Source of the DNA: Escherichia phage VEc25
Direction: 5' to 3' (one strand)
Length of the DNA stretch: 64,000 nucleotides
Sequence record: MW175414.1
In this document: piece by piece, positions 2,593 through 7,598 of the stretch
How positions within the stretch are numbered: the first letter of the stretch is position 1
Layout of the letters: each line of letters opens with the position of its first letter
The notes under the pieces: generated by a model
Told to the model about the DNA's origin: nothing
Database searches by the model: none
Seen by the model: the letters and a program-made list of their open reading frames with translations, nothing else
Program-made: the position numbers and the translations under genes

Positions 2593-2808
2593 ATGGAACA
2601 GTTAAACTACGGTTATAAGATTAAACGCAATCAAGTAAGAGGTTCTTGGTTATTTCTCATTTATGGCAAACCAATCTATGAATTACATCGTGGAGAGAAA
2701 TCCAAGACCTATTACGTAACTCATATTGCTACAGGAAAGACTCCTGCATGTGCAGGATTGCTTCGTGATGCAATTATGAAAGCATGTATGTTAGAAGGAC
2801 TTCTATGA
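2593..2808 (+). CDS. Hypothetical protein
   Basis: ORF with a ggaagg RBS. Confidence 0.4.
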   Translation: MEQLNYGYKIKRNQVRGSWLFLIYGKPIYELHRGEKSKTYYVTHIATGKTPACAGLLRDAIMKACMLEGLL

Positions 2809-3119
2809 ACCAAATCATTGCTATCCCGCAGCATAAAGCTCGTATTGCTGACAGGAATATTCGTATTCATTATCCAATGCCTTTGAGCAATCCATTTCAG
2901 AAAAATGAGAGAACCACGGATGAAGATATAGCAGCAGCTTATGAGGCATATCTTCGTAACCGTTTGGTAAGTGGTGACAAGCTCATTACGGCCGAAATGG
3001 AACGAATTGCTAAATTCGTTATGGATACTACTGACAAACCAGTTGGCCTCATCGGTAATGAACTGGAAGTGAATGTAATCCGTAAGATTATTATGGAGGC
3101 TCTTAATGGGAATCAGTGA
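2805..3119 (+). CDS. Hypothetical protein
   Basis: ORF-track frame 2784..3119; the ATG at 2805 overlaps the upstream stop. Preferred over the antisense ORF 2721..3155. Confidence 0.4.
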   Translation: MNQIIAIPQHKARIADRNIRIHYPMPLSNPFQKNERTTDEDIAAAYEAYLRNRLVSGDKLITAEMERIAKFVMDTTDKPVGLIGNELEVNVIRKIIMEALNGNQ

Positions 3120-3281
3120 ATCCCAGGCTATGGCTATTAAACAGTTAGCCTTCAACTGCCTTAGTGCTATGAAGGCATTTAATGAAGCAAAAACTTTCCC
3201 TGACCAGAATAAAGCTCGTATTCAACTTTATCAGTCTAAGAAAGATTTTGAAGAATATCTGGAAAGTATTACGGTGAAATA

Positions 3282-3602
3282 ATGAAAACAATATTAATTG
3301 TTCATGATGCTGATTTTAATGATGTTGATAAAATGATGCGTAATATTGATTATGTAGCTCAGACAACTCCAACATTTAAAGAAGAATTTACTCTATATTG
3401 TGATGCTAATTCACCATTAGTTCCCATTCTGAAAGAAGCCGGTTTACCCTTCTCTACAGATAATTTCCCTGAAGAACCTGATTATGTAATTTCATTTATT
3501 TATGACTTACATGATGGCTCAGAACCAAGTGAATTGGCTATGAGTCAATGGAAATCCAGAAGACCTGTATATGCATTTCAGGTAGTTAAATCAAGGGGTT
3601 AA
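3282..3602 (+). CDS. Hypothetical protein
   Basis: ORF on the + strand. Confidence 0.45.
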   Translation: MKTILIVHDADFNDVDKMMRNIDYVAQTTPTFKEEFTLYCDANSPLVPILKEAGLPFSTDNFPEEPDYVISFIYDLHDGSEPSELAMSQWKSRRPVYAFQVVKSRG

Positions 3603-3604
3603 CT

Positions 3605-3973
3605 ATGTTAGGTGATAACACTAATGCTCTGTTTGGGGTGTCAGCCAGACCCATTATCATTGTTAATAAACATCATGGTAAGAAAGGTGAATATATTGGG
3701 CGTGGTTCTCCTCTGGGTAATCCATTCGTTATTGGTAAAGATGGAACCAGAGAAGAAGTAATTGCCAAATATAAAGTATGGCTACAAGAACAGATTGATA
3801 AAGGTAATCCAGATGTACTGGATGAATTAAATCGTCTTGGTAATAAAGCCATTGATGAAAAAGGATTAGCTTTACAGTGCTTCTGTTATCCAAAACCTTG
3901 TCATGGCGAGGTTATTAAAGAGAAGTTAGTGAAAGCTATGTATAACTATTTTGTGGAAAATCCTAATGGATAA
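3605..3973 (+). CDS. Hypothetical protein with GRGSPLGNPF motif
   Basis: ORF; the GNPF-type motif is reminiscent of small phage-associated domains of unknown function. Confidence 0.45.
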   Translation: MLGDNTNALFGVSARPIIIVNKHHGKKGEYIGRGSPLGNPFVIGKDGTREEVIAKYKVWLQEQIDKGNPDVLDELNRLGNKAIDEKGLALQCFCYPKPCHGEVIKEKLVKAMYNYFVENPNG

Positions 3974-4151
3974 ACAATGCAAATGTGGTAAAGGCTATGT
4001 ATCCCAATGGGATGGTAAATGTGGTCATTGTAGAACCAAGAAAGAACAACGTGACCATGAATATGCACTTCAGGAAATGATTGTACCTGTTGAGAATTTA
4101 GGTATGGCTCCACTTGAGGCTTACAAATACATAAGGAGATTATGCAAATGA
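3966..4151 (+). CDS. Small Cys-rich (zinc-ribbon-like) protein
   Basis: CKCGKG...CGHC arrangement; ORF-track frame 3951..4151 with an internal ATG at 3966. Confidence 0.35.
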   Translation: MDKQCKCGKGYVSQWDGKCGHCRTKKEQRDHEYALQEMIVPVENLGMAPLEAYKYIRRLCK

Positions 4152-4528
4152 AAGAAGTATTCGTATTTGGTTCTAACCTTGCTGGTGTACATGGTGCAGG
4201 TGCTGCAAAGACAGCATATAAGAAACATGGAGCCAGATGGGGTAAAGGGCATGGTCATTATGGTGACAGCTATGCCATTCCCACTAAAGATACCAATATC
4301 AAAACGATGGCTATTGAAGACATTCGTACATTTGTAAATGCCTTCATTGTCTATGCTGCTAATCATCCAGAACTTAACTTTAAAGTTACTCGTGTAGGGT
4401 GTGGATTAGCTGGTATTGATGATTCTGTTATGGCCTCTATGTTTAAAAATGCCACTGGTAACTGTTCCTTTGACTTAGCATGGAAAAGTTACTTAGGGGA
4501 TGATTTCAACTACTGGGGAACGTTCTAA
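4142..4528 (+). CDS. Hypothetical protein with glycine-rich Rossmann-like motif
   Basis: N-terminal VFVFGSNLAGVHGAGAAKTA and C-terminal RVGCGLAGID motifs. Confidence 0.45.
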   Translation: MQMKEVFVFGSNLAGVHGAGAAKTAYKKHGARWGKGHGHYGDSYAIPTKDTNIKTMAIEDIRTFVNAFIVYAANHPELNFKVTRVGCGLAGIDDSVMASMFKNATGNCSFDLAWKSYLGDDFNYWGTF

Positions 4529-4545
4529 CTCATACATTAGGCAAT

Positions 4546-4562
4546 AAGCTGCTCCGCAGCTT
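4546..4562 (+). promoter_or_regulatory. Hairpin promoter for virion RNA polymerase (7-bp stem, 3-nt loop)
   Basis: aagctgc-tcc-gcagctt followed by ttgg, 40 nt upstream of the RNAP II genes; same pattern as the hairpin at 557. Confidence 0.55.
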
Positions 4563-4602
4563 TTGGTAATTAATATGTTTAACCAATTTTGGAGAATATG
4601 CG

Positions 4603-5412
4603 ATGTCTACTATCGAACATCAGATGCACCTCGAAAAGCTGTACAACAAGAACCAACTGTTACCAAGAATGCGTCAGGAGTTTGAAGAAAACTCCGGTAT
4701 TGATTTCAAAGCCTTCTTTGCACATATAGGCATTGATTACAAATTTGGCATTGATGCAATGGTTCAAATGGCTCTGCATAAGCGAGCTGACCTACCAACA
4801 TTAGTTGGTACATTGCGTCATCACTGCAAATCTGCACAGGAAGTAGCAGACAACCTTTTTAAGATGGCAAGTGAGGATTGCTTTAACTTTGACCCGACCA
4901 TCGACAAGTTCATTGTCATTTATACAATCAGCGATGACGTACAGCATGAACTGGATTCATTTCAATATCCACTACCTATGGTAGTACGTCCTAAGCTGTT
5001 AACTAAGAATTACGGTACTGGGTACTTCACATGTAATAAGAGTGTGATTCTTAAGAAGAACCATACTGACGATGACATCTGCTTAGACCATCTGAACCGT
5101 ATGAATAAGATTCCATTGTCTATCAATTGGGATGTAGCTCATATGGTTAAAAATGAATGGGCTAATTTGGATAAACCGAAAGAAGGTGAAACTCGTCAAG
5201 AGTTTGAAAAACGTGTACGTGCATTCCAGAAATACGACCGTACTGCACATGAAGTGATGGGTTTATTGACCCGGGAAGGCAATAAGTTCTATCTGACTCA
5301 TCGTCCGGATAAACGTGGTCGTACCTATTCTCAGGGATACCATGTGAACTACCAGGGAACCAGTTGGAACAAGGCTGTCCTTGAATTTGCTGAAAAAGAA
5401 GTAATTGATTAA
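4603..5412 (+). CDS. Phage RNA polymerase II, small subunit (N4 gp15-like)
   Basis: 269-aa ORF immediately upstream of the T7-like catalytic subunit; size and position match the N4 heterodimeric RNAP II. Confidence 0.65.
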   Translation: MSTIEHQMHLEKLYNKNQLLPRMRQEFEENSGIDFKAFFAHIGIDYKFGIDAMVQMALHKRADLPTLVGTLRHHCKSAQEVADNLFKMASEDCFNFDPTIDKFIVIYTISDDVQHELDSFQYPLPMVVRPKLLTKNYGTGYFTCNKSVILKKNHTDDDICLDHLNRMNKIPLSINWDVAHMVKNEWANLDKPKEGETRQEFEKRVRAFQKYDRTAHEVMGLLTREGNKFYLTHRPDKRGRTYSQGYHVNYQGTSWNKAVLEFAEKEVID

Positions 5413-5459
5413 GTAATCCATTAATGCAAGCCAATAGGCTAAGACGCGAGGAATATACA

Positions 5460-6674
5460 ATGCAAACTTTTACTGCCCGTGAATATCTGAAAATTGACAT
5501 TGCTAATAACTATGGTCTGGATAAAGAAGACTGGGATGACCGTATTGCATGGTTCGATAAGAATGAGAACAACCTACTGAACCTTGTAAGAGAAGCTGAA
5601 GAACCAGCCCTGTTCTACGCCGGTGTTAAAGCATGGATGGACGTTAAGGAAGGTAAGCCAATTGGTTATCCTGTTGCACTGGATGCTACATCATCTGGTC
5701 TACAGATTCTGGCTTGTCTGACTGGTGACCGTAGAGCTGCTGAACTATGTAACGTTGTTAACTATCGTGATGAAAGTGGCAAAGTTAAACGTCGTGATGC
5801 TTATACAGTTATCTACAACAAGATGCTGAACACTCTTGGTAAAGGTGCTCGTATCAAACGTAATGACTGTAAACAAGCAATCATGACTGCTCTGTATGGT
5901 TCAGAAGCTAAACCAAAGGAAGTATTTGGTGAAGGCATTATGCTCAACGTATTTGAAAGCACAATGAATGTGGAAGCACCTGCTGTATGGGAACTGAATA
6001 AATTCTGGTTACAGTGTGGTAATCCAGAGGCTTTCGTATATCACTGGGTAATGCCAGATGGCTTTAACGTATATATCAAAGTAATGGTAAATGAAGTGGA
6101 GACTGTCCACTTCTTAGATAAGCCATATGACTGTGTTCGTAAAGTACAAGGTACTGAAGAGAAGACTCGTATGCTATCTGCCAATACCACTCACTCTATT
6201 GATGGCCTAGTAGTACGTGAGCTGGTTCGTCGTTGTGATTATGACAAGAACCAGATTGAATACATCAAGGCTCTTTGCAATGGTGAAGCTGAATATAAGG
6301 CTTCTGAAAAGAACTATGGCAAAGCAATGGAACTGTGGGGCTATTATGAGAAGACAGGATTCCTGACTGCTCGTATCTTTGATTATCTGGATTCTGAAAC
6401 TATTAAATTAGTAAATACTCAGGACATTCTAGACCTGATTGAATCCATGCCTAAGAAGCCATTCCATGTACTCACTGTACATGACTGCTTCCGTTGCCTG
6501 CCTAACTATGGCAATGACATTCGTCGTCAGTACAACAACTTGTTAGCTACTATTGCTAAAGGCGACTTACTCTCTTTCATTATGAGCCAGGTTCTAGGCC
6601 AAGAAGTTACTATTGGCAAACTAGACCCGACTCTATGGGAAGATATATTAGAAACCGAATACGCTCTATCTTAA
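5460..6674 (+). CDS. Phage RNA polymerase II, catalytic subunit (T7-like, N4 gp16-like)
   Basis: 404 aa from the ATG at 5460; motif A-like VALDATSSGLQILA, motif B-like K..MTALYGS and motif C-like LTVHDCF. Confidence 0.75.
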   Translation: MQTFTAREYLKIDIANNYGLDKEDWDDRIAWFDKNENNLLNLVREAEEPALFYAGVKAWMDVKEGKPIGYPVALDATSSGLQILACLTGDRRAAELCNVVNYRDESGKVKRRDAYTVIYNKMLNTLGKGARIKRNDCKQAIMTALYGSEAKPKEVFGEGIMLNVFESTMNVEAPAVWELNKFWLQCGNPEAFVYHWVMPDGFNVYIKVMVNEVETVHFLDKPYDCVRKVQGTEEKTRMLSANTTHSIDGLVVRELVRRCDYDKNQIEYIKALCNGEAEYKASEKNYGKAMELWGYYEKTGFLTARIFDYLDSETIKLVNTQDILDLIESMPKKPFHVLTVHDCFRCLPNYGNDIRRQYNNLLATIAKGDLLSFIMSQVLGQEVTIGKLDPTLWEDILETEYALS

Positions 6675-6681
6675 TAACTAA

Positions 6682-6715
6682 GGCTATCCCTACGGGGGTA
6701 GCCTTTATTTTTTTA
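6682..6715 (+). terminator. Rho-independent terminator
   Basis: GC-rich stem-loop ggctatccc-tacg-ggggtagcc followed by a T-run. Confidence 0.6.
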
Positions 6716-6725
6716 GTAAATCATA

Positions 6726-7598
6726 ATGGATAGGCATTTAACCTATGAGGAAATTAAAATGCCTGTTCTTAAAGTGATGTTTCATAAAGACACCAACGTA
6801 GCTACTGTACTGGATGCCAGTGGTAGCCTTAGTGATGGTTCCGTTGAGGTGGGTACTTTCCATCACCCTGATGAAACGTATCCCGATAGTGTAACTATCT
6901 ATCATGGTGTCCGTGACCTGCTGTATAAACGCAGTGCTAAAGACCCATCTCAAACTGCTTCTTACCCAAATAACATTATCAATATGCAAGTTATCAGTAT
7001 TGATATGAAGGCAACTCCTCGCTTGATTCTGGGTACTGCATTGCCTCGTGTAATCTCTACTATTGAAGGTAAAGATGTAACCTGGCATGTAGATGTTGCT
7101 GGTGGTAAAGCACCATTGACTTACAAGTGGCAGTTTAAAGCTAATACTGTAGGTGCTGCTTTCGCTGATATTGATTCCGGAGAGAATCCTACAGCTAAAA
7201 CTGCAACTCTTATTAACCATGCAGTAACTGCTGAATCTGCTGGTACTTATAAAGTCATCATTACTGATGCTAACGGTACTACTATCGAGAGTTCTTCTCT
7301 GCTGGTTGTAGGAGTTCAGGAACCACCTGAAGTAGCTTCTATTGTTGCTTACCCAAGTCCACTGGCTCTATCAGTGGCTGATGATATTACTGAAGGTAAA
7401 ACAGTTAAGTTTTCTTCCCTGCCTGCTGGCTCTTTGATTGGTACTCTGTCCATTAAGACCCAGCCTGACAGTGGTAAAGCTACTGCTGAGATTAGTGGTA
7501 ATGTACTGACAGTTAAACCTGTAGCCGCAGGTGACACTACTGTAGTAGTCACCAACGGAACCAAGGAAGTAACTGTTACGGTTAATGTTACAGAGTAA
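6726..7598 (+). CDS. Ig-like domain protein, probable capsid decoration protein (N4 gp17-like)
   Basis: Repeated beta-rich T/V/S segments typical of bacterial Ig-like folds; position directly after RNAP II as in N4. Confidence 0.5.
   Translation: MDRHLTYEEIKMPVLKVMFHKDTNVATVLDASGSLSDGSVEVGTFHHPDETYPDSVTIYHGVRDLLYKRSAKDPSQTASYPNNIINMQVISIDMKATPRLILGTALPRVISTIEGKDVTWHVDVAGGKAPLTYKWQFKANTVGAAFADIDSGENPTAKTATLINHAVTAESAGTYKVIITDANGTTIESSSLLVVGVQEPPEVASIVAYPSPLALSVADDITEGKTVKFSSLPAGSLIGTLSIKTQPDSGKATAEISGNVLTVKPVAAGDTTVVVTNGTKEVTVTVNVTE

Follow-up and report, generated by a model that had tools for sequence, protein, structure and literature searches.

gp14 of N4-like phages, a predicted compact macrodomain and candidate counter-defence ADP-ribosyl hydrolase

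Two phage proteins provide precedents for the counteraction of DarT-type toxins: the macrodomain protein AdfM, directed against DarT2 (PMC13309987), and the NADAR protein AdfN, directed against DarT1 (PMC11825919). AdfM (PhiKZ gp104 and its chimallivirus homologs) was described in 2026 as the first phage macrodomain countering DNA ADP-ribosylation; it is imported into the phage nucleus, acts on DarT2-modified DNA, and has a putative active site, N23 and K78, equivalent to N22 and K80 of T. aquaticus DarG2 (PMC13309987). Human TARG1 strips thymidine-linked ADP-ribose (ADPr) from DNA (PMC8501950). Of the Lys/Asp dyad of TARG1, DarG keeps only the Lys, and SCO6735, which cleaves thymidine-ADPr (dT-ADPr), has Gln85 instead of the catalytic Lys and a longer 'mobile loop' (PMC9411070). 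Here we analyze gp14 of the N4-like Escherichia phage VEc25 (sequence record MW175414.1; the stretch of 64,000 nucleotides that was analyzed is called the window), which we describe as a predicted macrodomain and a candidate ADP-ribosyl hydrolase of counter-defence.

The longest open reading frame (ORF) at this locus in the ORF listing of the window, 4142..4528 on the + strand, encodes 128 aa and is the counterpart of gp14 of coliphage N4; over 3000-7000, the identity is 98.3% with N4 and 99.2% with AlfredRasser, a BASEL phage. The true start is more likely ATG 4148, which yields a protein of 126 aa, the length given for N4 in GenBank, because an AAGGAG sequence at 4133-4138 lies 9 nt 5' of this codon, because the ATG overlaps the stop codon of the preceding gene, gp13, as ATGA, and because the N-termini of homologs read MK-VFVFGSN. 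The same overlap suggests translational coupling of gp13 and gp14. Throughout, residues are numbered from the 4142 codon; N12, H17, and K49 correspond to N10, H15, and K47 in the numbering of N4. A preliminary description, made from the letters of the window, had pointed to an ORF with two glycine-rich motifs, and both are indeed present in 4142-4528: VFVFGSNLAGVHGAGAAKTA spans residues 6-25 and RVGCGLAGID residues 84-93. Minus-strand ORFs across gp14 (e.g. 4121-4366) are mechanical, with nothing backing them, and were set aside.

Fold and class of gp14

The features of the gene are as follows.

4142..4528, + strand: gp14 coding sequence, predicted compact macrodomain of the ALC1-like (TARG1/DarG/BT1257) class
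4166..4216, + strand: loop-1 motif FGSNLAGVHGAGAAKTA, residues 9-25, with N12, the GAG phosphate/ribose-binding turn, and H17
4175-4177, + strand: codon of the putative catalytic Asn, N12, within the loop-1 motif
4190-4192, + strand: codon of the family-specific invariant H17, within the loop-1 motif
4277..4291, + strand: end of the AIPTKD strand, residues 46-50, from hhalign against TARG1 and AdfM
4286-4288, + strand: codon of the putative catalytic Lys, K49, at the AIPTKD strand end
4391..4420, + strand: loop-2 motif RVGCGLAGID, residues 84-93, predicted second ADPr/phosphate-binding loop, aligned to TARG1 and BT1257

An AlphaFold2 model of gp14, built with 44 homologs, reached a predicted local distance difference test score of 91.6 and a predicted template modelling score of 0.87, and is an alpha/beta three-layer sandwich with the mixed, approximately six-stranded sheet of a macrodomain-type fold. 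With this model as the Foldseek query, BT1257 (PDB 2fg1) was the first match (E 3.8e-4), places 1-10 were taken by BT1257, a DarT-DarG fusion (7omu), TARG1, and DarG, and the significant structural neighbours, including viral predictions of BFVD, were all macrodomains. The preliminary description had read the motifs as ligand-binding loops of a Rossmann-like fold, and had proposed structure prediction and a fold search as a check. As that check returned a confident model surrounded by macrodomains, gp14 is almost certainly a macrodomain and not a Rossmann dinucleotide-binding protein. The ligand-binding loops of the earlier proposal stand, relocated to another fold: in the model, both glycine-rich motifs are loops lining the predicted ADPr cleft.

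A Rossmann-like dinucleotide- or nucleotide-binding protein of new function could share the alpha/beta three-layer sandwich and the glycine-rich loops after beta strands, and would fit the lack of a match between gp14 and the Pfam families. The exclusively macrodomain neighbourhood, the TARG1 and AdfM profile alignments spanning both motifs, and the existence of an NCBIfam model that covers gp14 and of homologs already annotated as macrodomains leave this reading hardly tenable.

Profile-profile alignment with hhalign connected the gp14 family to two of the described enzymes. With human TARG1 (probability 78%, E 1.9e-5), AIPTKD falls on YLITKK, with K49 on the catalytic K84, and RVGCGLAG falls on RIGCGLDR. 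With AdfM (E 1.8e-4, probability 48%), the alignment runs over 98 columns, nearly the whole domain; FGSNLAGVHGAGAAK falls on ITVNVVGVMGAGLAK, putting N12 on AdfM N23, and IPTKD falls on FPTKD, putting K49 on AdfM K78. In these two alignments, the loop-1 sequence HGAGAA is matched with MGAGIA/MGAGLA and the loop-2 sequence GCGLAG with GCGLDR/GCANGG. The whole of loop 2, RVGCGLAGID, compares with PRIGCGLDRL of TARG1 and PRIGCGLAGG of BT1257. The Asp of the TARG1 dyad (D125) is absent from gp14, which has A90 at that position. Because DarG too is without this Asp, A90 rules out a TARG1-type dyad but not membership in the ALC1-like class (TARG1, DarG, SCO6735, and BT1257), to which gp14 very probably belongs. 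gp14 is probably an active ADP-ribosyl hydrolase.

The two glycine-rich motifs are the best-conserved regions of the family, both in the 44-sequence alignment and in 275 family domains. In the former, F9, G10, S11, N12, G15, H17, G20, A21, A22, and A25 of loop 1 and G86, C87, G88, and A90 of loop 2 are invariant; in the latter, these positions are 94-99% conserved (N12, H17, and G20, 99% each; G86, C87, G88, and A90, at least 94% each, with A90, at the TARG1 D125 position, at 96%), and P47 and T48 are conserved at 99% and K49 at 92%. This conservation bears on the alternative that gp14 is a non-catalytic ADPr binder, serving as a sponge or reader for an ADPr signal or an ADP-ribosylated target. 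Some macrodomains are readers only, sensor versions were noted by Iyer et al., many phage counter-defence proteins against NAD-derived signals are sponges, and the dyad Asp is replaced by A90. Yet the Asn and Lys at the catalytic positions are conserved at 99% and 92%, DarG is active without the Asp, and the known sponge families have other folds, so that a pure binder is quite improbable.

Compared with the described proteins, gp14 resembles AdfM in organization. Both are stand-alone, non-virion phage macrodomains without an adjacent DarT, with a counter-defence role shown for one and proposed for the other, and they have in common an Asn and a Lys equivalent to N22 and K80 of DarG2, PTKD, and the GAG loop. 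However, AdfM is longer than gp14 by about 35 residues and carries Met in place of His17; the phage encoding AdfM forms a phage nucleus whereas N4 has none; and the activity of AdfM on DarT2-modified DNA is established, whereas the hydrolase role of gp14 is predicted from sequence and structure. DarG2 (M. tuberculosis and T. aquaticus; PDB 5m3i, 5m3e, 7omu) is about 17% identical to gp14 and has a C-terminal DarT-binding domain and an adjacent darT; in gp14, the macrodomain takes up the entire 126-128 aa, leaving no C-terminal DarT-binding domain, and no darT lies beside the gene in the window, where its neighbours are gp13 and the genes of the phage RNA polymerase II (RNAPII). In both respects, gp14 departs from the DarG antitoxin of a DarTG system. 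TARG1 (OARD1; PDB 4j5q/r/s; 152 aa) is compact like gp14, with MGAGIA for HGAGAA and LITK84 for IPTK49, but the Asp of its Lys84/Asp125 dyad is replaced in gp14 by an invariant Ala, and TARG1 is a eukaryotic enzyme of DNA repair and of the removal of mono-ADP-ribosylation from proteins, whereas gp14 is viral. Within the BT1257/SCO6735 subclass (PDB 2fg1, 2afc, 5e3b), the BT1257 loop-2 sequence RIGCGLAGG is almost exactly that of gp14, which differs from SCO6735 in keeping the Lys and in being shorter.

Family distribution and pairing with RNAPII

Two families whose names carry neither a function nor a mention of a macrodomain include gp14: it is a full-length member of NCBIfam NF049995, the 'A1S_2505 family phage non-structural protein' (E 3.9e-45; 152.6 bits, where the cut-off is 45; coverage of the model, 1-109 of 109), and it matches PHROG 2072, of 'unknown function' (5e-57). 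An exhaustive search yielded 4,226 representatives of clusters at 50% identity (E<=1e-3), and homologs are present in 441 phage records. These matches clearly mark a real gene under strong selection. Recognition of the homologs as macrodomains is not new: those of AlfredRasser, AL25, KP8, and several Erwinia and Pectobacterium phages are already annotated as macrodomain or ADP-ribosylglycohydrolase, the KP8 paper of 2019 uses these labels, and some GenBank records of homologs read Poa1p-like ADP-ribose-1''-phosphate phosphatase. Many other records are still 'hypothetical', probably because the Pfam Macro model, plain hidden Markov searches of PDB sequences, and the PADLOC models do not reach so divergent a family.

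Other labels were set aside. gp22 of the Pseudomonas phage Zuri (locus L085, 3995-4378; 127 aa), called 'DarT ssDNA thymidine ADP-ribosyltransferase', and gp56 of the Rhodobacter phage RcIroh (locus L086, 3001-3369; 122 aa), called 'ADP-ribosyltransferase', are macrodomain-only proteins with no toxin fusion; since their ORFs are of gp14 size, these are most likely mislabels, likely derived from matches to the DarT-DarG fusion structure. The 'gp14' of T7 and that of LUZ7 (Drc) are unrelated proteins with the name in common. The name A1S_2505 led, in the literature searched, to two papers on Acinetobacter, one dealing with sRNA signatures and one with the acquisition of zinc. The anti-signalling hotspot of the Migulavirinae is another locus, between the virion RNA polymerase (vRNAP) and primase-polymerase genes, and does not cover gp14.

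Among N4-like phages, gp14 is near-universal without being strictly core. In sequenced phages, the count of records with gp14 follows that of records with RNAPII from genus to genus: 100/100 for Pseudomonas, 17/17 for Achromobacter, 14/14 for Pectobacterium, 10/10 for Stenotrophomonas, and 65/68 for Escherichia, but 51/107 for Vibrio. These figures are in keeping with its absence from the published core set of 14 genes (PMC4193335). We further sampled 80 metagenomic viral loci with a gp14 relative, and sought RNAPII within the fetched flanks. The RNAPII small-subunit gene was found in 54 of these loci and was missing from 26. Where found, it was encoded downstream of, and on the same strand as, the macrodomain gene in 50 of 54 cases, at a median gap of 335 bp (43 loci within 700 bp), and this arrangement is kept even where RNAPII identity has fallen to 27-45% and the other early genes are unrecognisable. 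Of all features of the early region, it is thus the macrodomain-to-RNAPII pair that is best conserved among N4-like phages.

Outside this setting, the neighbours in 21 non-redundant loci lacking RNAPII are ribonucleotide reductase, gp32-type single-stranded DNA-binding protein (SSB), DnaB, RecA, 5'-3' exonuclease, helicases, RNA ligase, and methylases, i.e. replication and nucleotide-metabolism modules and not virion modules. Neighbours were surveyed in these 21 phage loci, with 141 ORFs, and in 40 cellular loci, with 142 ORFs; among the 25 commonest families of each survey, none was a DarT, toxin, or transferase. Longer members of the family (62) include fusions to SLOG/YAcAr (5, plus 2 DprA-like), NADAR (2), WYL_2 (2), and DUF4326 (1), and by this domain content the gp14 relatives are placed in a network of predicted ADPr-processing domains. 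A fold search of BFVD also found the domain as a module within giant 'helicase'-annotated proteins of crAss-like and other uncultured phages. It was found as well in the polyvalent protein gp_24128 of the crAss-like phage cr116_1 (locus L087, 6046-13569; 2,507 aa), where an ART-PolyVal domain (residues 248-376; ART, ADP-ribosyltransferase) is followed by a gp14-type macrodomain (residues ~986-1106), which combines a transferase and a probable hydrolase in one polypeptide.

Chromosomal relatives are few: a pattern-limited scan of 185,579 species genomes gave only 138, mostly on phage-like contigs of metagenome-assembled genomes. Recurrent chromosomal copies occur in many Ancylobacter species (45-48% identity to gp14; Ancylobacter/Xanthobacteraceae loci L105, L111, L112, L118, L120, L123, L125, L127-L129, and L147) and in several Acinetobacter species (L151, L152, L160, L161, and L164). 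The Acinetobacter ORFs of L151 and L161 are ~262-264 aa long, with an extra C-terminal region as in the family's namesake, A1S_2505. These copies may be fixed prophage remnants or domesticated genes.

The gene order and the cr116_1 protein are relevant to a reading in which gp14 removes ADPr from proteins or RNA, i.e. marks set on transcription or translation components of phage or host by host ART toxins, such as those that ADP-ribosylate mRNA, or phosphate-linked ADPr on RNA ends; on this reading, gp14 would stand beside RNAPII because it protects the transcription machinery of the phage or its transcripts. The order maintained in 50 of 54 loci, even at RNAPII identities of 27-45%, and the pairing of writer and eraser in cr116_1 both fit. 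Nevertheless, the synteny may represent a stable block of early and middle genes, as the order of core genes is conserved in N4-like phages (PMC4193335), the family is common in phages without RNAPII (26/80 loci), and no ART is evident beside the gene in the window or among the 25 commonest families listed per survey. Overall, we consider proteins or RNA to be unlikely targets.

Early-region context

The surroundings of gp14 in the window comprise the following elements.

3605..3973, + strand: gp12, DUF4326 protein (Pfam PF14216, 6.6e-23)
3966-4151, + strand: gp13, 61 aa, with a CxC...CxxC pattern (CKCGKGYVSQWDGKCGHC), from the ORF listing
4546..4562, + strand: hairpin AAGCTGC-TCC-GCAGCTT, then TTGG, in the gap between gp14 and gp15; 7-bp stem and 3-nt loop (DNA fold), template loop GGA
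4603-5412, + strand: gp15, RNAPII small subunit (annotation)
5424 or 5460 to 6674, + strand: gp16, RNAPII (annotation)

The placement of gp14 directly 5' of a hairpin promoter and the RNAPII genes, as given in the preliminary description, agrees with the hairpin at 4546-4562 and the start of gp15 at 4603. This hairpin has ATAAG..GCTCCGC..CTTTTGG in common with another at 559-571, 5' of gp2, and a third of the same design lies at 90-102, 5' of gp1. All three, on the + strand, have a 5-7 bp stem and a 3-nt loop, TTC or TCC (GAA or GGA on the template), with TTATGG or TTTTGG next after the stem. The three early promoters of the N4 vRNAP have a GC-rich heptamer centred at -11 with flanking inverted repeats (PMC4496689). 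The three hairpins match this description, and the one at 4546-4562 is probably such a promoter (P3-type) for the RNAPII genes, which would place gp14 last among the genes ahead of the RNAPII promoter. Across the window, the heptamer GCTCCGC shows no enrichment (3 matches against 2.2 expected), and the weight of this assignment comes from the position and the likeness of the flanks alone. The same hairpin with its T-run could also terminate an upstream transcript.

Two strong terminator-like hairpins with 11-bp stems and T-runs were seen at 2522-2547, after gp7, and at 6680-6705, after gp16. Transcription of gp8-gp14 could proceed by read-through of the first of these or could begin within 2547-2593, at a promoter that has escaped recognition. 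As judged from its position, gp14 is likely expressed early.

The cysteine spacing of gp13 suggests a small zinc ribbon; this gene co-occurs with gp14 in 15 of 83 loci, from the closest relatives only. In 19 of the 80 loci, the 6 kb upstream of the macrodomain gene contained a relative of gp12, and gp12 is a possible, loosely linked functional partner of gp14. gp9 (2784-3119) is a diverged paralog of gp12: both match the same profile region of PHROG 464, and BLASTP aligned them with 25% identity (E 5e-8) over residues 12-84 in the N-terminal two thirds of gp12, leaving its Cys-rich C-terminal part unaligned. The early cluster thus contains two DUF4326-like genes in addition to the macrodomain gene. 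In the Klebsiella phage KP8 (locus L007, 3799-4155) and its relatives, a DUF2493/DprA-like (SLOG) gene separates the gp9-like gene from the gp11-like one, where N4 and the window have only the 58-aa gp10; the early cluster thus varies in domains of the ADPr network.

Proposed function and significance

We propose that gp14 would be made from the left-end early region of the phage, that its two glycine-rich motifs would form the ADPr-binding cleft, and that it would most likely hydrolyse ADPr from a macromolecular conjugate used by the host against the phage. The substrate would be thymidine-linked ADPr placed on single-stranded DNA (ssDNA) of the phage by DarT2-type toxins, making gp14 an 'orphan antitoxin' of counter-defence, analogous to chimallivirus AdfM. 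The case for an orphan ADP-ribosyl hydrolase of counter-defence, with DarT2-type thymidine-ADPr on ssDNA as the most likely substrate, appears to us evenly balanced. That thymidine-ADPr on DNA is the main physiological substrate is a tentative suggestion, which we place somewhat on the doubtful side.

Several observations weigh against this proposal. gp14 is connected to DarG and AdfM only remotely, through profile-profile and structural comparison, unlike AdfM itself, which is close to DarG (9.4e-25 to PDB 5m3i; Pfam Macro 4.9e-7). The Pfam scan of gp14 (E<=1) left Macro PF01661 unmatched and gave a meaningless 5-FTHF cyclo-ligase as the sole match (E 0.05), phmmer and hmmsearch against PDB sequences reached BT1257 and TARG1 at a non-significant E of 0.6-1, and the PADLOC defence models, including DarG, matched neither gp14 nor, for that matter, gp12. 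Between helix 1 and the PTK strand, gp14 is short of about 30 residues present in DarG and AdfM, and the invariant His17 stands where DarG, TARG1, and AdfM have Met; consequently, the substrate or chemistry of gp14 may differ from those of DarG and AdfM. Near-universal presence at a fixed position is unusual for an accessory gene specific to defence. The early timing is read from position only, with the strong terminator-like hairpin at 2522-2547 lying upstream of gp14. In the literature searched, no paper linked N4 or N4-like phages with DarTG, and in the view of Iyer et al. (2022), phage macrodomains mostly target soluble ADPr derivatives (PMC9503650). Given how remote the relation is, that the insert is missing, that His17 is invariant, and that the gene is nearly core, the function of DarG should be transferred to gp14 with caution.

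The main rival follows from that general view of phage macrodomains (PMC9503650). gp14 would process soluble ADPr derivatives together with DUF4326 and SLOG proteins, destroying immune signals or toxic metabolites; candidates are ADPr-1''-phosphate, O-acetyl-ADPr, cyclic ADPR isomers, and His-ADPR, originating from host TIR, Sir2, or Thoeris-type immunity, or from RNA repair. DUF4326 was predicted to process terminal phosphates on ADPr derivatives (Iyer et al. 2022, PMC9503650). We regard a soluble substrate as a serious but rather unlikely possibility.

The persistence of the pair with RNAPII allows another reading, in which gp14 is a near-core 'template-cleaning' enzyme tied to N4-like transcription and not an occasional anti-defence accessory. 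The vRNAP requires hairpin promoters extruded in single-stranded form and kept stable by SSB (PMC4496689), and RNAPII works with ssDNA-binding cofactors (gp1 and gp2, PMC4496689; Drc, PMC7145618). On that account, N4-like genomes would offer an unusually open target to ADP-ribosyltransferases specific for ssDNA, e.g. DarT, and a DarG-like eraser encoded before RNAPII would keep promoters and templates readable, which would explain why the pair persists while all other early genes turn over. This idea is speculative and, in our estimate, improbable.

Beyond the earlier annotations, the present analysis contributes the Lys-type ALC1-like assignment of gp14, with its residue-level mapping onto DarG2, AdfM, and TARG1, the macrodomain-to-RNAPII pair as the best-conserved feature of the early region, the ART-containing polyvalent fusion of a crAss-like phage, and the anti-DarT2 hypothesis. 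Should gp14 prove to be an active eraser of the DarG kind, it would represent a second phage macrodomain family countering DNA ADP-ribosylation, far more widespread than AdfM in podoviruses, and a minimal macrodomain scaffold of ~125 aa for the Lys-only mechanism of DarG; PHROG 2072/NF049995, with more than 4,000 clusters at 50% identity, would gain a function. If the substrate proves instead to be soluble, gp14 would act enzymatically against signalling and be encoded outside the known hotspot of N4-like phages. Most sequenced N4-like phages have the gene, among them therapeutic phages of Pseudomonas, Klebsiella, and Achromobacter, and an eraser activity would thus bear on the prediction of host range for N4-like therapeutic phages on clinical strains that carry DarTG.

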